64,000 bases of DNA. Source: Escherichia coli (GTDB lineage Bacteria; Pseudomonadota; Gammaproteobacteria; Enterobacterales; Enterobacteriaceae). The stretch is from assembly GCF_013315695.1 (NCBI RefSeq), contig NZ_CP054353.1; one strand, 5' to 3'. A program made the translations under genes and the position numbers. Below are positions 4,985 through 61,072 of the stretch, one piece after another. The notes below the pieces were generated by a model. It was not told where the DNA came from. It saw only the letters and a list, made by a program, of their open reading frames with translations, and made no database searches. Each line of letters begins with the position of its first letter. Positions within the stretch are counted from its first letter, which is position 1.

Positions 4985-5015
4985 TCACTTCGCCTGAAAG
5001 CTTGAGTTACAACGG

Positions 5016-5043
5016 AAACCGGCCATTGCGCCGGTTTTTTTTG
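5016..5043 (+). terminator. intrinsic terminator after osmE
   Basis: accggccattgcgccggt hairpin followed by T8. Confidence 0.8.
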
Positions 5044-5282
5044 GCCTGAGTTCTTAATTATCTTCGCGAATTATTTGCCCGAAATGTGAAGAGGGTCATA
5101 ACCGCAGGTCAAGGAGAGACAATTTATAAGGTCAAAGAAATACTATTGCTCAGGTCTATACCGTATACTCCTTTCAGCCACAAAAAAAGTCATGTTGGTT
5201 TCGCAAGTTACCCAGAGCATGGAAGCAGGTTAAGGCTTGCGGAGTGTCTGGCTTACAGATAATCGTCGATGAGGGCAGTTTT

Positions 5283-5603
5283 ATGGAAAAGAAACACATT
5301 TATCTGTTTTGTTCTGCGGGCATGTCTACCTCTTTACTGGTATCAAAAATGCGCGCACAGGCAGAAAAATATGAAGTTCCGGTCATTATTGAAGCATTTC
5401 CGGAAACACTGGCTGGTGAAAAAGGTCAGAATGCCGATGTCGTGTTATTAGGGCCGCAGATTGCTTATATGTTGCCCGAAATCCAGCGTTTGTTACCCAA
5501 CAAACCGGTCGAAGTAATTGACTCGCTGCTTTATGGCAAAGTCGATGGTTTAGGCGTGCTTAAGGCTGCGGTTGCAGCGATTAAAAAAGCCGCAGCAAAT
5601 TAA
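5283..5603 (+). CDS. chbB: PTS chitobiose-specific EIIB
   Basis: Internal start [17 protein letters not shown] gives 106 aa. The active-site Cys motif is [10 protein letters not shown]. Confidence 0.9.
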
Positions 5604-10562: not shown

Positions 10563-12824
10563 TTACGCCGGAATTTTGTCAATCTTAGGAATGCGTGACC
10601 ACACGCGGTGTGCTGCCATCAGCGTTAACAGTTCATCCATAAAACTACCATCGGCGCTGTCAGCTTCCACAATCCCTTCTTCACCCTGATCAGCGACCTT
10701 GATTCTTACTTTAAACTTGCGCGCGTCTCCTGCCAGCGCAATCGGTTTAAGGTGTTTGTAGGCTTCCATCAGGTAGTAGTTGGCATCGCCGTTGTCAGCG
10801 ATATCCGCGATATTGCCGCAAGGGACAATAACCGCATCGACCGTCAGCGAAGGCGCTCCGGCAAATGTAGCGGCTATAGGCAGCACCGTACCGTCATCCG
10901 CAGTCACTTCACCCATTCGGGAGTAGAGCAGTTTGGCATGAACGCCTTTGGCCTTCAGCGCCTTGAGAATGGCCAGAAGGTCTGCCGATCTCACTTCATC
11001 ATTAAGTAAAATCGCTACCACGCGACCTTTCACATCACCGTCAGGAATGGCGTACAAACTTAAGGATGGATCCTTTTTCAGACCGTTGACGTCCGGAGGC
11101 GGGGTGATATTCAGCTGGTCGTCCGTCAGCTCGATACCGAGATTTTTCGCCACCGCCTGGGCCAGAGTGAGATCAATATGTGCCAGCTGGTCAACAACGC
11201 GCTCACGAATATACGGACGAACTACTTTGCTTAACTCAAAACTGAAACCATCGACAATATGGCGCTGCTCGAATGGCGTCTGACTTAGCCAGAACAGACG
11301 CGGATGGGAATAATATTCGCCAAACGATGGGCTGCGCTCGCGAACTTTATTGCCTTCCACGCGCTCCTGGTATGATTCAAAACCGCCGCGTTTCGGCCCC
11401 GGCGGTGTTTCGCGCGGCCAGTTATCGTTGATCGAGTTCGGTTCATAATTCGCCGGGTTAGTGTCGATCCCCATACGATGCATGCCGTCACGCTGGAAAT
11501 TATGGTAAGGGCAGGTCGGGCGGTTAATCGGAATCTCATGGAAATTTGGTCCGCCAAGACGACTGATTTGTGTATCGGTATAAGAGAACAAACGCCCCTG
11601 CAACAGCGGATCGTTGGTGAAGTCCAGACCAGGAACAATATGACCTGGATGGAATGCTGCTTGTTCGTTTTCGGCAAAGAAGTTATCCGGATTGCGATTG
11701 AGCACCATTTTGCCGACACGCTGAACGGGCACCAGTTCTTCCGGGATAAGTTTAGTTGGATCAAGAAGGTCGAAGTCGAACTTAAATTCATCTTCCTCAG
11801 GAATCAACTGGAAGCCCAGTTCGTATTCCGGAAAATCGCCGGCTTCAATCGCTTCCCACAACTCGCGGCGGTGGAAGTCCGGGTCACGTCCGGTTAGTTT
11901 TTGTGCTTCATCCCAAACGAGTGAGGCTTTACCTGCCAGTGGTTTCCAGTGGAAACGTACGAACGTTGCCTTCCCTTCGGCATTAATCAGGCGGAAGGTG
12001 TGAATACCGAAGCCTTCCATGGTGCGGTAACTGCGCGGGATACCGCGATCCGACATCGCCCACATCACGTTGTGCAGAGTTTCAGGTTGCAGAGAAACAT
12101 AATCCCAGAAAGTATCGTGGGCGCTTTGCCCTTGTGGAATTGCCCAGTGTGGTTCTGGTTTTACCGCATGCACAAAATCAGGGAATTTATGCGCATCCTG
12201 GATAAAGAAGATTGGCGTGTTATTGCCAACAAGGTCAAAAATACCCTCTTCGGTATAGAACTTGGTGGCAAAGCCACGGATATCACGCACGGTATCGGCA
12301 GAGCCAGCACCACCCTGAACGGTAGAGAAACGTACAAATACTGGGGTGATTTTGTTCGGATCTGAGAGGAAATCCGCTTTGGTAATATCGCTTAAGCTTT
12401 TATATGGCTGGAAATAACCGTGAGCGGCTGATCCGCGTGCATGAACAATACGTTCCGGGATGCGCTCATGGTCAAAGTGGGTGATTTTCTCGCGCAGAAT
12501 AAAATCTTCCAGCAGCGTTGGACCACGGTTACCGGCACGCAGTGAGTTTTGATCGTCGGCGATGCGCACGCCCTGATTAGTGGTCAGCGCATAATTTTCA
12601 CTGCCTTTGCGTACGTCTTCCAGAGAATTAAGTTTTTCGTTACGCGTATCAGGGGCTTTCAGGCTCCCAGGGGCGGTAGGTTGTGCACCTGGCGGTGTTG
12701 GTTCAGCCGCTGGACGATGAGATCCGTCTTCAGGTGCCAGTGAGTCCATCCCCGGTTTCGCTTCGCTGGAATCGTGTAGTGGTGACTGGTGCTGATGTGG
12801 GTTCTTTTCGTTATGTTGCGACAT
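10563..12824 (-). CDS. katE: catalase HPII
   Basis: 753-aa large-subunit catalase (..[22 protein letters not shown]..). Confidence 0.97.
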
Positions 12825-52087: not shown

Positions 52088-53842
52088 GTGACAGACGGCA
52101 TGATTCAGGACGCATTCATCAGGCTGCGGGCAAAACAGCTTTACTGGCAGGGTTACCCGCCCGCTGAAATATCGCGGCTGATGGGTATCAGTCAGAACAC
52201 GATTTATTCGTGGAAAAAGCGCGACGGATGGGATGAAACGCCGCCCGTGGAGCGGGTCACGCAGTCGATTGATGCGCGACTGGTTCAGCTGACCTCAAAA
52301 GCTGAAAAGAGCGGCGGTGATTTTAAGGAAATCGACCTGCTGACACGCCAGCTCGCAAAACTGAATGACAACAGGGGTGGAGCGGAAAAAAGCCCGCGAA
52401 AACGAAAGCTGAAAAACCATTTTTCCGAATCGCAGGTTGCCGCACTGCGCGAACACATCACCGGTCAACTGGCAGAGCATCAGCGACGCTGGTATGAGGC
52501 GCTGGAAGTCTGCCGTCGTGCCGGTGTTGATATTCGCATCATTGTGAAATCCCGACAGATAGGCGCGACCTGGTATTTTGCGCAGGAGGCACTGCTGCGT
52601 GCGCTGGATGAGAGCGTGAAATATCCGTACCAGCGAAACCAGATTTTTTTGTCAGCCTCGCGCCGTCAGGCTTTTCAGTTTAAAGGCGTGATTCAGAAGG
52701 CGGCACAGGCTGTGGATGTCGAGCTGAAAGGCGGTGACAAAATTGTGCTTTCCAACGGCGCGGAACTGCATTTTCTGGGGACATCCGCCGCGAGTGCACA
52801 GTCATACACGGGCAATCTGTATTTTGACGAATTTTTCTGGGTGTCGAACTTCATCACGCTGCGCAAGGTGGCAGGTGCGATGGCCACGCTGAATGGCCTG
52901 ACGCAGACCTACTTTTCCACGCCGTCATCGGAGATGCACGAGGCGTTTCAGTTCTGGAACGGCGCGCGGTGGAATGCCGGGCGACCACGCAGTGAGCGCA
53001 GGGAGATTGATGTGTCCCACCGCGCCCTGAAGAGTGGAGTGCTGTGCCCCGACAGTGCGTGGCGGCAAATCGTGACGATTCAGGATGCAGTGGACCTGGG
53101 CTGGACGCTCACCAGTATCGACAAAATCCGCAACATGAACTCGCCGGATGAGTTCCGCAATCTCTACATGTGCGAGTTTGTCAGCGACGGCGAATCCGCC
53201 TTCGACCTTAATGCCCTGCTGGGCTGTGGCGTGGATGGCTATGACGAGTGGAATGACTGGAAACCGTTCGCAGCACGTCCGGTGGGTAATCGTCCGGTGT
53301 GGATTGGCTACGACGCTAACGGCAGCAGCGGTAACGGCGACAGCGGGGCGCTGTCTGTTGTTGTACCGCCTGCTGTCAGGGGCGGCAAATTCCGCACGGT
53401 GGAGACGTTGCAGGTGCAGGGGCTGGAATTTGAAGAGCAGGCCCGTGTGATTGAACAGTTCACGCACAAATACAACGTCCAGCATATTGGTATCGACGTG
53501 ACCGGCGGTAACGGCGAGGCGGTGTACCAGATAGTGCGGCGGTTCTGGCCTGCCGCCGTACCGTACACGTTCACGCTGGCATCCAAACGCGCGCTTGTGC
53601 TGAAGATGTTGCAGATTATTCGTGCGGGGCGCTGGGAGTATGACCGGGGCGAACGTGAGCTGGTCAGGGCATTCAACGCCGTGCGCAAGGCAAAAACGGC
53701 GGGCGGCGCAATAACGTATGAAACAGACCGCACGCGCGGCGTAAACCACGGCGACCTCGCGTGGGCAACCATGCTTGCCGTCATTAACGAGCCGCTGGGC
53801 GATGAGGACGGTGCAACAGGAATGCGGGTGATTGAGTTCTGA
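52088..53842 (+). CDS. terminase large (ATPase) subunit gpP-like
   Basis: 584 aa, divergent from O and followed by the portal gene, as in P2. Confidence 0.9.
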   Translation: MTDGMIQDAFIRLRAKQLYWQGYPPAEISRLMGISQNTIYSWKKRDGWDETPPVERVTQSIDARLVQLTSKAEKSGGDFKEIDLLTRQLAKLNDNRGGAEKSPRKRKLKNHFSESQVAALREHITGQLAEHQRRWYEALEVCRRAGVDIRIIVKSRQIGATWYFAQEALLRALDESVKYPYQRNQIFLSASRRQAFQFKGVIQKAAQAVDVELKGGDKIVLSNGAELHFLGTSAASAQSYTGNLYFDEFFWVSNFITLRKVAGAMATLNGLTQTYFSTPSSEMHEAFQFWNGARWNAGRPRSERREIDVSHRALKSGVLCPDSAWRQIVTIQDAVDLGWTLTSIDKIRNMNSPDEFRNLYMCEFVSDGESAFDLNALLGCGVDGYDEWNDWKPFAARPVGNRPVWIGYDANGSSGNGDSGALSVVVPPAVRGGKFRTVETLQVQGLEFEEQARVIEQFTHKYNVQHIGIDVTGGNGEAVYQIVRRFWPAAVPYTFTLASKRALVLKMLQIIRAGRWEYDRGERELVRAFNAVRKAKTAGGAITYETDRTRGVNHGDLAWATMLAVINEPLGDEDGATGMRVIEF

Positions 53843-54891
53843 TGAAAAAACAAAAACGAAAATATACCCGCCGCGATGACGGCGTGGAGCTGGCAGAGGC
53901 ACTGCGCCGCCAGCCGTCGTTAAGCGCCTTCTCGTTCGATGGCCCTTACGATGCGCACGCGCTCGACCTGCTGGATAACGCATACTGCCTGAGTAACGGC
54001 AGATACTATGAAACGCCCGTTGACTGGTACGGGCTGGCGCGGGCATCCCGGCAGACCTCGTGGCATCAGTCGGCGCTGTACTTCAAACGAAATGCCATTC
54101 TGGGCTGCTTCATTCCGCACCGGCTGTTGTCCCGGCAGGCGTTCTCCGCCTTTGCGCTGGACTGGTTTGTCTTCGGGAATGCGTTTCTTGAACTGCGTAC
54201 CAACAGGCTGGGCGGAAAACTGGAACTGCGCCATGCCCTGGCAAAATACGTCCGTCGTGGTGTTGAGCCGGATGTGTACTGGTTTGTGCAGACGGGCGAG
54301 CAGGAGCACGAGTTCCGTCAGGGGCGCGTCTGTCATGTGCTGAACCCTGACATCAACCAGGAGATGTACGGAATGCCGGAATATCTCGGCGGCCTGTTGT
54401 CTGCCAGTCTGTCGCATTCGGCAGATCGTTTTCGCAAACTCTACTATGACAACGGTTCACACGCAGGCTGCATTATTTACGTGGGAGCAGCACAGGTTGA
54501 CCGCGAAAGCATGCAGGCGCTCGAAAGAGCGTTGCAGGGCGCAAGAGGCGGTGGGGCATTCAAAAACCTGCTGCTCCAGGCACCGAACGGCGGGAAGGAC
54601 GGTGTGCAAATCCTGCCGTTCCAGCAGATCACCGCCCGGGATGAGTTTATGAACGTCAAGGCTGCCTCCCGCGATGATGTGCTGGCTGCTCACCGCGTAC
54701 CACCACAACTGATGGGCGCAATGCCCAGCGGACAGGGGTCATTTGGTGATGTGGAGAAGGCGGCAAGAGTGTTTGCGATCAACGAACTGATGCCGGTGAT
54801 GGAGGCGATGAAGCACGTTAATGACTGGCTGGGCGAGGAGGTGATCCGCTTTAACCCTTACGCACTGCTGGATACCCCGCCCACATCCTGA
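53842..54891 (+). CDS. portal protein gpQ-like
   Basis: 349 aa. ATGA-coupled to P. Confidence 0.9.
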   Translation: MKKQKRKYTRRDDGVELAEALRRQPSLSAFSFDGPYDAHALDLLDNAYCLSNGRYYETPVDWYGLARASRQTSWHQSALYFKRNAILGCFIPHRLLSRQAFSAFALDWFVFGNAFLELRTNRLGGKLELRHALAKYVRRGVEPDVYWFVQTGEQEHEFRQGRVCHVLNPDINQEMYGMPEYLGGLLSASLSHSADRFRKLYYDNGSHAGCIIYVGAAQVDRESMQALERALQGARGGGAFKNLLLQAPNGGKDGVQILPFQQITARDEFMNVKAASRDDVLAAHRVPPQLMGAMPSGQGSFGDVEKAARVFAINELMPVMEAMKHVNDWLGEEVIRFNPYALLDTPPTS

Positions 54892-54918
54892 CGCGCTCCG
54901 CTTGTCTGCTGCTTCGCC

Positions 54919-54941
54919 GGGGCATAAAAAATTTATGCCCC
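54919..54941 (+). other. 10-bp hairpin after the portal gene
   Basis: ggggcataaa-aaa-tttatgcccc. Confidence 0.6.
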
Positions 54942-55169
54942 GACTCACCAGCTCCGGTGTGTCACGCACCAGGCATCTCAGGGATCTACCAGGTTGAATA
55001 ACCTGTCAGCACACGCCGCACCAAAGCGCATCACAGGGCGTGTGATGCATCAGCCCATACTTCACACACAACCAATAAAACATCGCGTCAGGGGCGCAAT
55101 CAGCCGCATTTCTGGCGATTTCTGAGGGTGCTTTCAGACCCCAAATTGCGGGCTGTTCCCCGGCACCTG

Positions 55170-55300
55170 CGCGCAGAAAAAACGCGTTTTTTTGTGCACG
55201 CACGGATCCTTGACGGATCCAGCCGCCACGGGGGCCGGAAGGGCAAAAAGTCGTTCAAAAAAATTGTGCAAATTTGTGCACTATTGTGCAGTAGAGCGAT
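55170..55300. other. presumed cos / packaging-site region with repeats
   Basis: Position after Q as in P2. agCCGCCACGggggccggaagggc loosely resembles the complement of the remembered 186/P2 cohesive ends. Palindrome a6cgcgt7. acggatcc x2. TTGTGCA x4. Confidence 0.3.
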
Positions 55301-55449
55301 ACATGATTTTCGCCTTTATTTCAGTGTGTTCAGGTGGTCATTCTCAATACCCATTTGGTGAGAGACAGGAATAAAAATGATCTTTATCAGTAGGTTATGT
55401 GTGTGATTAAATTAGATGCAGCACGTTTAGTCCCCAGAACCCAAGACCA

Positions 55450-56256
55450 ATGAAAGATAACAATCAGAAAAAAATGATATGGCATGTTGCCTGTGATGAA
55501 TCTGGCGTTGATGGGCAGCCATTCTACGGGTTTGGGAGTCTCTGGATGAGCTATCAGAGGCGCGCTGAACTCACTCGCATGGTACAGGATTTGAGAAAAA
55601 AGCATGGATGCAGTGATGAGCTCAAATGGCAGAAAGCACATTCAAAGCGTAATGCAGCTTTTTATAGCGACGTCATTGATGTGTTTTTTAGGCACAACTG
55701 GATGGCTTTTCACTGTATTATTGTTGAGAAGTCTAAAGTAGAAAAATCATATCATGGTGGGGATTATGATCTTGCAATGCGTAAGCATTTTTGCAAGCTT
55801 ATTGAAACAAAAATAGGTAACGTGATCCAAAGGTGGCCTCATGCGGAATGTGAGTTCCTTATAGAAGTTGATCCCCTGCCATCTCGTTACAAAAAAGCCG
55901 ATGAAGAGTTTCACATAATTGCCAACCATTCTCTGGCCCGAAAGTATGGGCGCAAGGACATAATTAAACTAGTTGAAACAAAAGACTCAAAAACATCGGA
56001 ACATATTCAGCTTGTCGATTTTTTATTAGGGGCTGTAATGTGTGCATATCAAAGGAAAGCCACTTCTCCAGCGAAACTGGCTATGGCAGAGAAAATCGCT
56101 TCTTATCTTGGGTGGGAATCATTACGGCACGATACCTGGCCGACAGAGCGAAAATTCAATATCTGGTTGTTTTTTGATAAAAAGAAGGGGCCAAGAGATA
56201 TTGAAACGAAAGAGGTTAATTTGCGATATAAATTACCCCCTTTGCGTAAAAAATAG
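55450..56256 (+). CDS. DUF3800-like protein (268 aa), function unknown
   Basis: N-terminal MIWHVACDESGVDG and C-terminal IQLVDFLLGAVMCAY resemble the two hallmark motifs I recall for DUF3800. Visibly AT-rich compared with flanking phage genes. Opposite strand to the early operon. Confidence 0.7.
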   Translation: MKDNNQKKMIWHVACDESGVDGQPFYGFGSLWMSYQRRAELTRMVQDLRKKHGCSDELKWQKAHSKRNAAFYSDVIDVFFRHNWMAFHCIIVEKSKVEKSYHGGDYDLAMRKHFCKLIETKIGNVIQRWPHAECEFLIEVDPLPSRYKKADEEFHIIANHSLARKYGRKDIIKLVETKDSKTSEHIQLVDFLLGAVMCAYQRKATSPAKLAMAEKIASYLGWESLRHDTWPTERKFNIWLFFDKKKGPRDIETKEVNLRYKLPPLRKK

Positions 56257-56487
56257 CGCCAACCTCTCAGCTGGCGTGGTTGGAGTCCCAGTCTGACGAC
56301 GAAGTTACCAACTAGGCGGTATCAACTTTTGGGGGGCCGCCTCTAAATCCCCAAAACCTTGAAATCTGCGTAAAACATAACGTTGAAAACGTTTAAATTC
56401 AATAAATTTTTCTGTGAATCGGGGCGTCTATATCCGCCCCTCTTAAGTTTAGCTTCACTTCCCCTGGGGATGCTTCACCGTATTGCC

Positions 56488-56799
56488 TTATTCGGGGAAT
56501 AACGCCCTGATATTTCCGGCCATCTGATTGGTTATCTGTGCGGTTGGTACTGGCTGTGACACGGGGCGTTCTGTCCTGGTTTGTGTCACGGATAACGCCT
56601 CATCGTCAGCCCATGCAGCCAGTCGGTGAGCCTCTGCTGGATTCATTTTCAGAAGTGCCAGCCCGGCCAGAAAAGCCACGCGTTGGCCGCTTTTGCGGGC
56701 TTCTGGTGTAAGGCTGTCCAGCCAGGCGCATGCTTCGCTTTCGTTCTTGACGGCCGCAGGCTTCAGATAGAAACTTATCCGTCTGGTTGGTGTCGTCAT
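56488..56799 (-). CDS. parR: ParR-like centromere-binding protein (103 aa)
   Basis: The internal start MTTPTRRISFYLKPAAVKNESEACAWLDSLTPEARKSGQRVAFLAGLALLKMNP lies 4 nt after the parM stop. Compare R1 ParR ..RRTIAFKLNPDV...LDSIPQGERS..AALTAGLALYRQNP (from memory). Confidence 0.75.
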   Translation of the reverse strand: MTTPTRRISFYLKPAAVKNESEACAWLDSLTPEARKSGQRVAFLAGLALLKMNPAEAHRLAAWADDEALSVTQTRTERPVSQPVPTAQITNQMAGNIRALFPE

Positions 56800-56803
56800 T
56801 GGT

Positions 56804-57763
56804 TTACTCCTTGTCCATTGCGTACAGCCCATTAACCAGAGCAAACTGTGGCACCCCGTCCGCGATGAAAGTCGCATTAACTCCGCAGGCTTCGCGGATA
56901 GCGGGTGCCACAATCTCCGCCCCTCCACCGACAACCATCACCCGCCCATAACCCGAAAAACCCGCCAGCGCGCGGATCACGCGTTGTTTCAGTGTTTCTT
57001 CCTTTTCACGAATAACCGCCATCAGGCTGTCGTAATGCGCGTCATTGTGGATGTGCTGGCGCAGCCAGGCTTCATCATGGCGATGTTCGATAATGGTATT
57101 GGCGATATGGTGGCTGGTACGCATACCGTTAGTGGCCATCACCGACAGTACGGCATCGGCCATCAGAGAAACGCCTACGTGTGGATCGCAAAACACCTGG
57201 CTGATACCTGCCAGTTGTCCCTGAACCTTTGCCACATCCAGCGTGGTTCCGCCCAAATCCACAATCAGCAGTGATTCAAACGGACTCATGTCAGCCAGTG
57301 CCTTAAAGCCAGCCGGAATGGATTCAGGCATAACCCGTACGTTACGGATAGTGAATGCTTCGCCGTTCTGGTACTCCACCGGGCGCATAACGTTCGCTTT
57401 TTTGCGGTTGATGTTGGCCATGTCCGGCTGTGCGTTTGTGTCGAAATACTCGCTCAGTGGCAGGGTGACAACCACATCCACCTCCTGTGGCGTGATGCCT
57501 GATTTGACCAGCGCGTGATGAATGGCAATGACATTCACATCGCTGTACTGGTATTGCGTGTCGGTCGTCTGGACAAAGCGATCGCTGACCGGATCAAAAC
57601 CATAGCGCACGCCATCAAGCATGTAGTTCGCGGGCTGCGTGCCACCGAACGGCGCAGACCATTCCGACTTGAAGCTGTTCGGGCTGATGGCGTTGCGGCG
57701 TTCGCCGTTCTCAGTCCATGCCAGCTTGATGTTGGTGGAGCCGTCGTCGATACAAATTTTCAT
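56804..57763 (-). CDS. parM: ParM-like actin-family segregation ATPase (319 aa)
   Basis: MKICIDDGSTNIKLAW.., LIVDLGGTTLDV, VMVVGGGAEIV (phosphate-1, phosphate-2 and adenosine motifs). Collinear by eye with plasmid R1 ParM over the whole length. Confidence 0.9.
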   Translation of the reverse strand: MKICIDDGSTNIKLAWTENGERRNAISPNSFKSEWSAPFGGTQPANYMLDGVRYGFDPVSDRFVQTTDTQYQYSDVNVIAIHHALVKSGITPQEVDVVVTLPLSEYFDTNAQPDMANINRKKANVMRPVEYQNGEAFTIRNVRVMPESIPAGFKALADMSPFESLLIVDLGGTTLDVAKVQGQLAGISQVFCDPHVGVSLMADAVLSVMATNGMRTSHHIANTIIEHRHDEAWLRQHIHNDAHYDSLMAVIREKEETLKQRVIRALAGFSGYGRVMVVGGGAEIVAPAIREACGVNATFIADGVPQFALVNGLYAMDKE

Positions 57764-57794: not shown

Positions 57795-57908
57795 TTTACA
57801 GGATTTTTAAATCCCGTTTTTGCCTGTTTTGTGCGCACTTCATATATCGCGGCACGTTTTTTGCTCATTTACGGGATTTGTGAATCCCGTTTCTGTCTGT
57901 TTTTTGTT
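57795..57908 (-). repeat. two 39-bp direct repeats, each with an internal palindrome, upstream of parM (parC-like candidate)
   Basis: tttacaGGATTTttAAATCCcgtttttgcctgttttgtg (57795-57833) and tttacGGGATTtgtgAATCCCgtttctgtctgttttttg (57868-57906). 33/39 identical, 73-bp spacing. Confidence 0.5.
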
Positions 57909-60686
57909 TCCACTGGTCAGGCTACCCCGCAGCAGGTCTGCTTTGCGGCGGGCGCGTTCAGTGGTTTCACTGATTCTCTGTGCGTGCTCTGCGTCACGGA
58001 TGGCGTGCAGCATGTCAGAAAGCACGGTAACAGGGGTTTTCATGGTGTTCTGGTCCTGCTGAAGTGTGGATGCCAGGCGTGCGGCGGCTTCGGGGTCTGA
58101 TGCCCCCAGCTGTTCCAGATAGCTGGCGACCGGGTTATGGCGGATCTCCGTGCTGCTTACGCCGTGATTACGGCTCAGGCGCTGCCAGAGCTGCGTGATT
58201 CGGCTGTCCGGGCGGGTATCCGGTTTGCGTACAATTTCAAATCCCTGCGGTGCAATGATGCTGCCGTCAACGTACAGACTGCCGCCCCGTAACAGGTGCT
58301 GCATCTGCTGTTCACCAATATGCAGGCCGAGAGATTCAGCAGACTCCCGCCATTCTTTTGCGAGTAACTCGTGGTTATCAGGCAAAGGCTGTGGCTGTTT
58401 GCGGCTCTGTGTCCAGCTCTGCATTTCATAACTGCTGTTTTTGGCCTGTTTGTCACGCAGCGAACGCATCAGCGCCCGGCGTTCGTGCCGTTTCAGTGAG
58501 CGCATCCATTCATTCACTTCAATTTCAATGCCGTCAGGAAGCTGCGGCCACTGTGCTGGCCGTTCTTCCGGCTGTTCTGTCCCGTTGTTGTCCGTTTCCT
58601 GTACACGGGGACAGTTATTGCCACGAGTCCAAGGGGCGGCAGGGCCGCCCTGAAGGTCAAAACCATTTTCGCGGGCGCTGTCTTCCGCTTCCGGTTTGCG
58701 TCTTACCAGCTTCCAGTTATCCGGATGCGTGCATACGCGGGAAGACTCCCCAATGAGCGGCGACCAGATCCCGTAAATCTGTACGCTCTGTTCACCGTAA
58801 TCGTTCAGCTCATCTGCGAGGTCGTAGGCGGTGCGAATCAGGTAGTCTTTGCGTGGAACAAGTACGCCACCCTGTTTCTCAATGTAGGTGGCAAAACATC
58901 CGGCATCAGCGGCAGCGAGTACCGCGTCCATTGCGTCATCCTTCAGCCGTTGCGGGCCTTCCGGGTTGCGTGCCATCTGGCTGGCAAGGCGGCGCAGTTC
59001 ACGCCACACCTGACGGGAGGGGATACCAAAGAACTGGAACTGGCGGACCCGGTGAAGGCGCGCCCAGCCGATGGCGCGTTCCACGCTCTCGGCCATTGAT
59101 TTTCCGGTTTCGTGGTCAACGCGTGGCTTGCCCGTTTTCGGGTCGATGCCATCCACGGCGCGGCTGTCCAGGTTCTTTCCGATGTAGGTGGCGATGTAGC
59201 TGGTTGGTGTGCCTTTTGAGCCGTCTACGTACTCCGCCTTAAAACGCGGAGTTATGTCATCGCCCAGCTCGTGGCGGTCTTCCTGAATGGCAATATCGCA
59301 GACGTGGGACACGATGGTTTCAATCTCGTCCTGATGTGCAAAGACCATCATATGCCAGTGCACAGTGCCGTCATGGTGAGGCTCCACCGTGCGGATGCCA
59401 TACCAGCGCAGACCGTCGCGGTTCAGTTTTTTGCGGACCGCCGCAAAAAACGTGTTAACCAGGTAATCGCTGGAGTCGCGCATGGTGGCCCCGTTCCATT
59501 TGGGATTCGGATGACCGTTCTCCGTTGTTGCGTGGTATTTTGACGGGCAGGTGACAGTCAGAAACACCGCTCTGTCGCCACGGGCTTCGGCCAGAAGTTC
59601 CAGTCCCTTCATGGTGGCCATCATTTCTGCCTTACGGTGAACCGGGTTACTTACTCCCGCGTAATACACTGTCTCGAGATCAATCGTGAACCCGTCTTCG
59701 TTTTCCAGCATGAAACTTTTCAGGAAATCGCGTGTTTTCTCGCGCTGTGCGCGAAACTCGCTTAACGCGTCCTGGCTCAGATAGGGTGATGTTTTTCTGG
59801 AAACCAGACAGGCGGCGCGGAGTTGTTCTTCTCTCCACTCGCAACGTAACAGCCACAGTTTGCGTTTCCACCATTCCGCACAGGTCAGGCGAAGGATTGC
59901 GCCCGGCAGCAGCTCCGTGTCCGGTTCGTTCCTCCGGTCTTTGTCTGTTGTCAGTGCGTCATAATGTGGAGGCATGGCGTGCAGGTGTAACGCCATGCGG
60001 GCCAGCATCTGATACGCCTTCAGCGTTACATCCATGGTCAGTTCGCCATCAGTCGCACCAAAGCCATCGCAGAGTTTTTCGAAGGTGCTGCTGAACATCG
60101 CCGCCGTCATGGTGGCCAGCGTCTGTATCTGGTGTTTGTTGAGCTGCGGCAGGTAAAGCAAATCGTCCAGGCGTTCGCGTCCGGCAAGGGAGCGATAACC
60201 CGGTGTCAGCCAGCGGTGATCGGTGCGGTCCAGGCGTTCGAATATTTTGCGCAGGGTTCCGCGCGCGTAGCGTTCAGCCTGCCAGCTCTTTTTGCCTTTC
60301 TGGCGATCGGCTTCCTGTTTTTTGCGCAGGAAAGAGAGGTGGCGGCTCAGAGGTTCACGCAGATAAACGGGAAGCACCTTCAGTGTGGCAAAAGCACGGG
60401 CCACCGGGTCTTGTTCTGTTGCCTGACGCTTGCTGATGATGCTTTGTGCCAGCTTTTCACGCTGTCCGGCTTCCTCAAGGGATGCCATGAGTTTTTTACC
60501 CACGGTGGATTGTGCGAAAAAGGCTTCCTCCTTCGCTTCCTGTTCTTCCAGAGCCTTTTTGTCTGCCTCAAGGTAGTAACGGATGGCGCGTTGTAGGTCG
60601 GTTTCAGTTTCCTGCCTGTGCTCCGTAAATCTGGCCGGATCAATGGCTGGCCGTGGTTCATTCCAGCTCCATGCAAACTCACTCAT
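57840..60686 (-). CDS. gpA-like HUH rolling-circle replication initiator endonuclease (about 948 aa)
   Basis: HUH motif TVHWHMMVF and paired tyrosines TSYIATYIGKN as in P2 A. The start at MSEFAWSW gives an ATGA overlap with the upstream ORF stop. The track's upstream ATG at 60713 is not excluded. Confidence 0.85.
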   Translation of the reverse strand: MSEFAWSWNEPRPAIDPARFTEHRQETETDLQRAIRYYLEADKKALEEQEAKEEAFFAQSTVGKKLMASLEEAGQREKLAQSIISKRQATEQDPVARAFATLKVLPVYLREPLSRHLSFLRKKQEADRQKGKKSWQAERYARGTLRKIFERLDRTDHRWLTPGYRSLAGRERLDDLLYLPQLNKHQIQTLATMTAAMFSSTFEKLCDGFGATDGELTMDVTLKAYQMLARMALHLHAMPPHYDALTTDKDRRNEPDTELLPGAILRLTCAEWWKRKLWLLRCEWREEQLRAACLVSRKTSPYLSQDALSEFRAQREKTRDFLKSFMLENEDGFTIDLETVYYAGVSNPVHRKAEMMATMKGLELLAEARGDRAVFLTVTCPSKYHATTENGHPNPKWNGATMRDSSDYLVNTFFAAVRKKLNRDGLRWYGIRTVEPHHDGTVHWHMMVFAHQDEIETIVSHVCDIAIQEDRHELGDDITPRFKAEYVDGSKGTPTSYIATYIGKNLDSRAVDGIDPKTGKPRVDHETGKSMAESVERAIGWARLHRVRQFQFFGIPSRQVWRELRRLASQMARNPEGPQRLKDDAMDAVLAAADAGCFATYIEKQGGVLVPRKDYLIRTAYDLADELNDYGEQSVQIYGIWSPLIGESSRVCTHPDNWKLVRRKPEAEDSARENGFDLQGGPAAPWTRGNNCPRVQETDNNGTEQPEERPAQWPQLPDGIEIEVNEWMRSLKRHERRALMRSLRDKQAKNSSYEMQSWTQSRKQPQPLPDNHELLAKEWRESAESLGLHIGEQQMQHLLRGGSLYVDGSIIAPQGFEIVRKPDTRPDSRITQLWQRLSRNHGVSSTEIRHNPVASYLEQLGASDPEAAARLASTLQQDQNTMKTPVTVLSDMLHAIRDAEHAQRISETTERARRKADLLRGSLTSGNKKQTETGFTNPVNEQKTCRDI

Positions 60687-61072
60687 GGCTGGTATCCCGT
60701 CACGCGCTGCCACTCCTGCGAGAAGAGGGCAGAAAGGCGGTTAAATTCAGCGGTGTATTCACTCAGCGAGGCACACCCGCCAGCAGTGCGATGCGCCAGC
60801 ATTGCCGCAAATACGGAGGCCGGGGAGTCGTAATACGCCAGCAGTGATTCTCCGTGTGGTGTCAGGCAATGCAACGCCAGCCCGTGTGGTGTGAAGTCCA
60901 CGCGGTAGCAGTCGTCTACTGTGAAATAAAGGGTGTCTGCATTTTCCGGTTTTGTGGTGCGTGCTCTGTTGTCACGACCACGGATGTAGAGATCAAATAA
61001 TCCCTGAAGAACGGGAGCCAGACGGGTGTCCTGTGTGCGCACCCATCTTGTGAAGTCATGAGCGTCAATCAT
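60683..61072 (-). CDS. hypothetical early protein (129 aa)
   Basis: ORF translationally coupled to A. No family recognised. Confidence 0.6.
   Translation of the reverse strand: MIDAHDFTRWVRTQDTRLAPVLQGLFDLYIRGRDNRARTTKPENADTLYFTVDDCYRVDFTPHGLALHCLTPHGESLLAYYDSPASVFAAMLAHRTAGGCASLSEYTAEFNRLSALFSQEWQRVTGYQP

Follow-up and report, generated by a model that had tools for sequence, protein, structure and literature searches.

We describe a compact two-part cassette, a gene for a DUF3800 protein facing a structured small RNA, in a 64,000-nucleotide (nt) stretch of the Escherichia coli contig NZ_CP054353.1 (hereafter the window, meaning the whole stretch analysed). The cassette lies in a variable slot beside the probable cos site of an integrated P2-like prophage, and our comparisons support a mobile convergent pair, in which a promoter and the DUF3800 gene face the RNA and a promoter of its own. 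The gene and its position are already known and catalogued, and a DUF3800 gene accompanied by an RNA is a known, unexplained kind of arrangement; the RNA of the window is a new member of this kind that is not in Rfam. With moderate confidence, we favour a function as a nuclease effector that is held in check by the RNA and acts in exclusion or abortive infection, and the coupling of gene and RNA is itself more likely than this defence role.

An original prediction, drawn from the letters of the window, had described the locus as an AT-rich, DUF3800-like orphan gene standing alone, a single-gene moron at the hotspot that carries old and tin in phage P2. The open reading frame (ORF) of 268 amino acids (aa) at 55450..56256 proved real and more AT-rich than its neighbours, with a GC content of 0.408 (0.394 at third codon positions, GC3) against 0.55-0.58 in the flanking genes (portal 0.581, GC3 0.680; stbB 0.554; parM 0.550; gpA 0.566), and this bias therefore marks foreign DNA. 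Membership in DUF3800 was confirmed by a profile search with Pfam PF12686 (E=3.5e-10, 41.2 bits, gathering score 21), in which residues 15-196 aligned to profile positions 4-146 of 149. The two motifs that had been linked to the family are present, WHVACDESG with D16 and E17 and IQLVDFLLGAV with Q187-L-V-D190 (QxxD). Among 27 homologues sharing 44-76% identity with the window protein, on which residue conservation was judged, C15-D16-E17-S18-G19, D141, D151-E152, D179, Q187 and D190 are invariant. In a PADLOC comparison, as had been suggested, the protein matched the defence-candidate model PDC-M04A (PDLC04353, E=2.6e-35, residues 12-241) as well as a second model, PDLC04354 (E=1.9e-18). The 'M' in PDC-M04 presumably denotes the multi-gene series of the PADLOC naming scheme. 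An NCBIfam search with the protein gave no match, and literature searches on PDC-M04 and on rlfA returned nothing relevant.

Far from being an orphan, the protein matches PHROG 3732 (E=7e-133), a protein search returned 184 homologues at E <=1e-5 across Gammaproteobacteria, and an identical sequence is recorded on at least 1,000 contigs under the name 'DUF3800 domain-containing protein'. Escherichia phage Chuche encodes an identical protein, and distant DUF3800 relatives, RlfA/RapA, are found in phages P1 and P7. Upstream of the gene, a promoter-like site with an extended -10 TG at 55404-55405 was read straight from the sequence, the consensus promoter scanner giving no report there, and in alignments this block is kept upstream of homologues in unrelated prophage contexts. 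The DUF3800 gene thus appears, at the level of sequence, to have its own conserved promoter.

The structure prediction and Foldseek comparison that the original prediction had proposed yielded an RNase H-like fold. The AlphaFold2 (AF2) model of the ORF protein had a predicted local distance difference test score (pLDDT) of 89.2 and a predicted template modelling score (pTM) of 0.89, and its best matches in the PDB were RNase HII (1eke, E=5e-6) and human RNase H2A. The modelled fold is therefore RNase HII-like (type 2 RNase H-like), and the protein is not a member of the RNase HII family; published modelling of DUF3800 proteins agrees with an RNase H-like fold (PMC7736814, PMC10910872). In comparison with RNase HII and RNase H2A (PDB 1io2, 1eke, 3puf), the window protein has an extra C-terminal helical region and the QxxD motif, and a relationship was not detectable at the sequence level. 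The Pfam scan gave no RNase HII match at E up to 0.1, a sequence-based PDB profile search produced one irrelevant match only (E=0.67) and no RNase H link, and hhalign against E. coli RnhB, with a manually entered RnhB sequence, returned a probability of 0.2.

Alignment of the 3' flanks of the homologues revealed a non-coding block of about 100 nt that is near-invariant across divergent loci. In the window this block falls in the right-hand spacer (56257-56487), where the original prediction had seen hairpins; hairpins are present, but the spacer holds more than these, namely a conserved minus-strand RNA gene of about 120 nt, whose 5' end near 56367 was placed from the position of its promoter. 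A 30-nt core pattern of the RNA was recovered from 44 IMG/VR contigs and 21 metagenome contigs. The unique RNA sequences carry compensatory changes in four helices, and the fifth, P3, is invariant. In a model-based alignment of 59 sequences that included divergent variants, the 27 pairs of the five helices, pseudoknot included, were paired in 96.9% of cells, with changes on both sides in 15 of the 27 pairs. The covariation score was 0.283, compared with 0.092 in shuffles (0/500 as high) and at most 0.085 with slid partners, bearing in mind that the nested helices of this alignment were fitted to the model and that the sequences are related; an alignment made with MAFFT alone gave the same covariation picture. 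Different clades have rebuilt the pseudoknot with unrelated sequences (UUUUGGGG/CCCCAAAA, UUCAGGA/UCCUGAA, UAACAAG/CUUGUUA and CACAAAG/CUUUGUG), and the covariance model matched the window at 56254-56365 on the minus strand with 116.9 bits. Extension of the P2 helix by the CUU/GGG pairs of an energy fold is doubtful, as G92 varies (A, U) without compensation.

The strand of the RNA follows from its mismatches. Read on the minus strand, the non-Watson-Crick cells comprise 111 G·U and 22 A·C, and one G·U beside the P1 loop is invariant; this G·U excess therefore identifies the RNA as the minus strand, convergent with the ORF. A plus-strand RNA, as a 3' untranslated region (UTR) of the ORF, was rejected, since the mismatches that are G·U on the minus strand would be C·A there and only the minus strand has the U-tract after P1. 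P1 and this tract form an intrinsic terminator, which the terminator scan placed at 56276 to 56257 on the minus strand; the U-tract is the complement of the final AAA AAA TAG of the ORF, and P1 covaries in 4 of 6 pairs. At the other end, a sigma-70 match of at least 9/12 lies upstream of the RNA in 51% of 69 unique loci, compared with 12% in shuffles, and the -10 element ends 29 nt (interquartile range 27.5-30.5) before P3. In many loci, the RNA promoter is immediately preceded by a terminator. In the window, the DUF3800 mRNA could end at a terminator-like hairpin at 56421-56440; with read-through to this point, the 3' UTR of the mRNA would be completely antisense to the RNA, which would add a type-I-like layer of regulation.

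Searches among known RNAs gave no match. No Rfam 15 family was found in the slot (E up to 5), in the 161-nt element (E up to 10) or in five variant loci (E up to 1), and the sub-threshold Rfam matches in or beside the slot (gyrA RNA, CRISPR-DR6, blv_FSE) were attributed to chance. Scans of the window and six loci detected no tRNA or tmRNA; a T-arm-like GGTTGGAGTCC was discarded as lying on the non-functional strand of the RNA element. A full-text literature search for the RNA core sequence returned nothing relevant.

Gene and RNA travel together. Homologues at 63-76% identity are single, opposite-strand genes in differing prophage sites, including, in lambdoid prophages of E. coli and Serratia, the gap from Q to holin and, in a 186-like Salmonella prophage, a site near the integrase, and at least four unrelated insertion contexts were distinguished with no shared protein neighbour. 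The covarying RNA was present in 66 of the 73 IMG/VR loci found through the protein, convergent with the gene on the opposite strand and starting within about 25 nt of its end, which speaks against the single-gene class in which the gene had been placed; six of the seven loci without it are cut at the contig end. Three of four GTDB loci also carry the RNA. In the P2-like Mannheimia phage PHL101, where a 43%-identical protein is encoded between the cI side and tail gene D, the RNA scored 54.6 bits, and its pseudoknot, P4 and P1 all show compensatory changes. Conservation is higher for the RNA (79-89%) than for the protein (62-76%), and the distances of the two correlate (Spearman 0.86 over 47 loci, the pairs not being independent). 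Together, the carriers of the cassette comprise the P2-like cos slot, the lambdoid Q-holin gap, the int-adjacent site, the Mannheimia phage and a 70-kb E. coli plasmid.

Several of these loci showed further features. For the lambdoid-type cassette, 13 of 57 E. coli genomes (e.g. NZ_AP027902.1, NZ_CP047010.1 and NZ_CP058719.1) match its first 48-73% only, and the missing gene 3' end and RNA in these copies suggest recurrent decay. A Salmonella locus (L004) encodes at 5009-5602 (+), just upstream of a 76%-identical DUF3800 gene, a conserved 197-aa protein that has no Pfam domain and a weak match to PADLOC PDC-M18B (E=0.0012). In an E. coli lambdoid prophage with a 63%-identical DUF3800 protein (L007), C4 antisense RNA (74.2 bits) and isrK (61.2 bits) were detected at 10572-10772 (-) beside a gene of the Bro-N/P22 antirepressor type; this immI-like module has no relation to the DUF3800-RNA pair.

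The prophage has a P88-like backbone (Xuanwuvirus, Peduoviridae). Homology to P88 covers 54601-54958 and 55148-55290 (94%) and resumes from 56488 onward, and the variable stretch is therefore 55291-56487 (Table 1). In phage P2, tin and old occupy the interval between gene A and cosR, and Q is found immediately beyond cosL. The interval has been described as a defence hotspot (Rousset et al. 2022, PMC9122126), in the paper to which the original prediction had referred and whose content is as stated there. This layout, the comparison with P88 and the probable cos together support the placement at the old/tin hotspot next to cos. The original prediction had placed the gene on the opposite strand; it is opposite only to the early and partition genes and shares its strand with portal and terminase. 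The slot lies between gpA and gpQ, and its content varies among related prophages: at least partial matches to the portal-ParM stretch were obtained in about 1,450 of 5,426 complete E. coli genomes, and the cargos of relatives include ead/Ea22, ClpX-ZnF, DUF4760, Doc/Phd, PIN+HTH, TOPRIM, XF1762, IS1 and others. The cassette itself is present in only 37 of the 5,426 genomes, at >=99.4% identity, and is therefore accessory rather than core; its carriers include the strains E. coli A24, H22 and DEC5B.

The left-hand spacer (55170-55300) had been taken as a repeat-rich border of the gene. It does contain repeats, TTGTGCA occurring three times at 55260-55289 with the repeats 10 nt apart, but it belongs to conserved phage backbone, and the block 55148-55290 forms the left border of the cassette and lies outside it. 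The ends of the linear record LR595891.1 (P88_4B11) meet at window position 55245|55246, a placement that depends on how this record was linearised, and the block with its repeats is probably cos plus terminase-binding repeats. Comparison of the 19-nt cos of P2 with the block gave chance 8-mers only and no convincing similarity.

Table 1. Features of the cassette and its surroundings, in window coordinates.
Feature	Position	Strand	Details
Terminase	52088-53842	+	
Portal	53842-54891	+	
Phage backbone block, probable cos	55148..55290	.	94% identical to P88, flanking DNA not
Promoter-like site of DUF3800 gene	55384..55412	+	-35 TTATCA 55384-55389, 17-nt spacer, TTAAAT 55407-55412
DUF3800 protein gene	55450..56256	+	ORF, 268 aa, ATG start; the one long ORF in the slot
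Structured small RNA, ~120 nt	56248..56367	-	Convergent with the ORF; in the right-hand spacer
RNA intrinsic terminator	56248..56276	-	P1 stem-loop (7 bp, loop UGAGAG, invariant G·U), then CUAUUUUUU
P1 helix of RNA	56276-56270 with 56263-56257	-	
P2 helix of RNA	56300-56298 with 56293-56291	-	
P4	56312-56308 with 56283-56279	-	
P3	56341-56337 with 56319-56315	-	
Pseudoknot helix	56356-56349 with 56334-56327	-	
RNA promoter-like site	56374..56402	-	-35 TTGAAT 56402-56397, 17-nt spacer, -10 TATGTT 56379-56374
G+C-rich hairpin, terminator-like	56421..56440	+	Between RNA promoter and stbB end
StbB (Plasmid_stab_B)	56488-56934	-	ORF called mechanically
ParM (StbA_N + ParM, E=1.8e-82)	56804-57763	-	
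gpA-like replication protein	57840-60713	-	957 aa

Several observations concern the neighbours of the slot. A plasmid-type partition pair, ParM and StbB (56488-57763, -), stands between gpA and the slot of this integrated prophage, and the same pair is found in P88 and in about 1,400 E. coli genomes, which raises the question of whether such phages can also be maintained as plasmids. The mechanically called StbB ORF has 148 aa, a TTG start and a 131-nt overlap with the end of parM; the Pfam match begins at residue 51 and the PHROG match at residue 46, and the gene annotated in Chuche and P88 has 312 nt, so that the true start probably lies near 56799. In the gpA-like protein, the Phage_GPA domain covers residues 194-518 only, between long N- and C-terminal extensions without a Pfam match. 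A hairpin with 21-nt arms at 54908-54952, directly after portal, is at the place of the P2 tQ terminator; the Rfam hit 'gyrA RNA' on its minus strand (22 bits vs 45) is almost certainly due to chance.

Pairs of this kind have been met in several settings. Eleven structured RNA motifs, DUF3800-I to -XI, are tied to DUF3800 genes (Weinberg et al. 2017, PMC5737381) and share with the window element a conserved, complex non-coding RNA adjoining a DUF3800 gene. The published motifs may lie on either strand, often with a Rho-independent terminator after them; unlike these, the window RNA belongs to prophages of Enterobacterales and Pasteurellaceae, invariably converges on the gene and has a terminator that abuts the stop codon. 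On neither strand did it match, at E up to 10, any family of Rfam 15, a release in which DUF3800-I and -IX are represented. Retrons of type VII, which consist of a reverse transcriptase (RT), multicopy single-stranded DNA (msDNA) and DUF3800 and are classed with defence retrons (Mestre et al. 2020, PMC7736814), likewise pair an RNase H2-like DUF3800 protein with a structured non-coding nucleic acid; their proteins are without the Q of QxxD that the window protein possesses. No reverse transcriptase was detected by Pfam among portal, StbB, ParM and gpA, the other ORFs of the slot being short overlapping frames that were not Pfam-scanned. DUF3800 is also encoded beside CRISPR effectors, at Cas12a2/a3 and Cas13 loci (PMC10910872, PMC13594972, 10.64898/2026.08.25.746378).

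Small-RNA antitoxins provide a second set of precedents. In AbiF/RCd22, an RNA motif from comparative genomics proved to be an RNA antitoxin that neutralises its toxin by direct binding (PMC12373285), and AvcID demonstrates that a small-RNA antitoxin can sense phage-induced transcription shut-off (PMC10511110). These and ToxIN-type systems share with the window a protein effector, carried by a mobile element or prophage, and a small structured RNA with its own promoter. By contrast, the window protein is RNase HII-like instead of Abi_2, ToxN or a deaminase, its toxicity and its interaction with the RNA are putative, and the RNA is a single pseudoknotted unit, not tandem repeats, that converges on the gene at its 3' end and does not lie upstream. 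No tandem repeats of the type III (ToxIN-like) kind were found in 54850-56560, and the RNA is downstream on the opposite strand; a 268-aa soluble RNase H-like protein is likewise distinct from the small hydrophobic peptide of type I toxin-antitoxin systems, to which the likeness would be limited to the possible 3' antisense overlap.

With regard to the hotspot, Rousset et al. (2022, PMC9122126) placed the slot between replication gene A and portal gene Q by cos, with variable content, as in the window; the window phage differs in being P88-like (Xuanwuvirus) and in having ParM/StbB between gpA and the slot. Table S5 of that study lists 'StbA + DUF3800 + Plasmid_stab_B' about 15 times. The P2-hotspot systems that its text reports as validated are DUF4238, a three-gene system and DprA+PRTase, and DUF3800 is not among them. 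The table covers proteins only, and the RNA was therefore not seen.

The nuclease-plus-RNA-antitoxin reading is favoured because of the ties of DUF3800 to structured nucleic acids and the AbiF and AvcID precedents. In this mechanistic model, the first part of the cassette, the DUF3800 protein with its conserved D-E...D...QxxD acidic set, would be a nuclease effector. The second part is the pseudoknotted RNA of about 120 nt, with its own promoter, transcribed towards the gene and with its terminator touching the stop codon. The RNA would bind the protein, or pair with the 3' end of its mRNA, and so restrain the effector in the manner of an RNA antitoxin. If infection by another phage or a similar disturbance lowered or altered the RNA, the nuclease might be freed, whereupon the invader would be aborted or excluded.

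Several results weigh against this model. The folding energy of the RNA is not unusual (z = -0.79; -0.79 and -1.01 for the two strands), the RNA promoter of the window matches only 8/12 consensus positions with no report there from the promoter scanner, and the counts of co-occurrence and co-divergence were not corrected for shared ancestry. The RNA is absent at a full-length Kangiella homologue (56%) and at the remaining viral locus, L100; no PDC-M04 partner was matched in StbB, ParM, three small slot ORFs or the neighbours of homologues; and in the literature searched, no DUF3800 protein has been shown by experiment to be a nuclease, to be toxic or to act in defence. Conversely, 50 of 65 RNA pattern matches adjoin the gene and 15 (about 23%) do not, so the RNA can persist, and perhaps work, alone. 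These gene-less copies fall into two main kinds, with one locus (L045) of neither. In the lambdoid kind, the RNA comes directly after a Q-like gene, exactly where the late-promoter leader is expected, with a further terminator next; in the P2-like kind, it faces an Ogr/Delta-like zinc-finger (ogr-like) gene in the same slot.

The lambdoid variant (L020, L022, L028, L039, L040, L047, L154 and L155, in non-E. coli hosts) has a different pseudoknot sequence, a longer leader and the promoter TTGCAA-17-TATATT, and lies after a 204-aa Q-like gene at the place expected for the pR' late leader, with about 570 nt without ORFs before the holin gene. A similar upstream terminator was found at L149 and L151, and the L022 form gave no match in complete E. 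coli genomes. For the ogr-facing kind, the Xuanwuvirus-like locus L003 (4001-4157; also L024, L037, L052 and L152) retains an RNA gene 93% identical by megablast, with its promoter and without DUF3800; such copies could be an orphan antitoxin, a decoy or an independent small RNA.

A more far-reaching proposal, which we regard as possible but clearly less probable than the antitoxin model, is that an RNase HII-like nuclease has the RNA as its obligate partner, whether as inhibitor, sensor or specificity factor, the two forming a new RNA-protein anti-phage module, and that the stand-alone RNA copies are decoys with which their phages neutralise this nuclease. Were this so, it would account as well for the other eleven RNAs associated with DUF3800, which have lacked an explanation since 2017.

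In a rival explanation, which the gene-less copies favour, the DUF3800 gene is, as originally predicted, a stand-alone defence or exclusion moron and the RNA an unrelated phage feature, such as a terminator, late leader or operon-end small RNA, next to which morons happen to insert and that is carried along. The position after Q at the expected pR' leader, the copies beside ogr-like genes and the double role of P1 as a terminator all fit such a passenger, but the RNA follows the gene into the cos slot, the int-adjacent site and the Mannheimia phage, is kept at 43-100% protein identity, never lies more than about 25 nt from the stop codon, and co-diverges with the protein. A passenger terminator, moreover, needs no conserved pseudoknot or invariant loops, and we consider this explanation unlikely.

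Somewhat more doubtful still is the view that the pair serves the prophage's own biology, for example with the RNA regulating lysogeny or late transcription and the protein processing this RNA or replication intermediates. The late-leader position in lambdoid phages, the RlfA/RapA relatives in P1 and P7 and the replication and partition genes adjoining the window cassette are in line with it. However, the cassette is missing from most related prophages, which have toxin-antitoxin and nuclease genes there instead, and it is AT-rich and foreign to the backbone; that it turns up at different positions in phages of unrelated types agrees better with an accessory function open to exchange than with a core function.

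A selfish addiction module, in which a nuclease toxin and RNA antitoxin stabilise the carrier prophage or plasmid with no benefit against other phages, shares its architecture with the favoured model, occurs on plasmids as well as prophages and adjoins ParM/StbB in the window, but is improbable, as the 13 truncated lambdoid-type copies indicate that loss is apparently tolerated and a slot that holds nuclease and toxin-antitoxin genes in relatives, and validated defence systems in other P2-like phages, favours defence. Toxin-antitoxin and defence roles are not exclusive.

In summary, DUF3800 recurs beside structured nucleic acids, with eleven orphan RNA motifs, type VII retrons and Cas12a2/a3 and Cas13 loci, and the window adds a compact DUF3800-plus-RNA pair of about 1.1 kb with its own promoters. 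The pair resides in prophages of E. coli, a host for which phage panels, genetic tools and RNA techniques are standard, and the long-open question of the DUF3800-RNA association therefore becomes directly testable. It also illustrates that RNA components can escape catalogues of defence hotspots that list proteins only, such as Table S5 of Rousset et al. and PADLOC. Should the RNA control a nuclease effector, the known repertoire of defence or toxin-antitoxin systems would gain an RNA-regulated RNase H-like member, and the orphan RNA copies might represent counter-defence.

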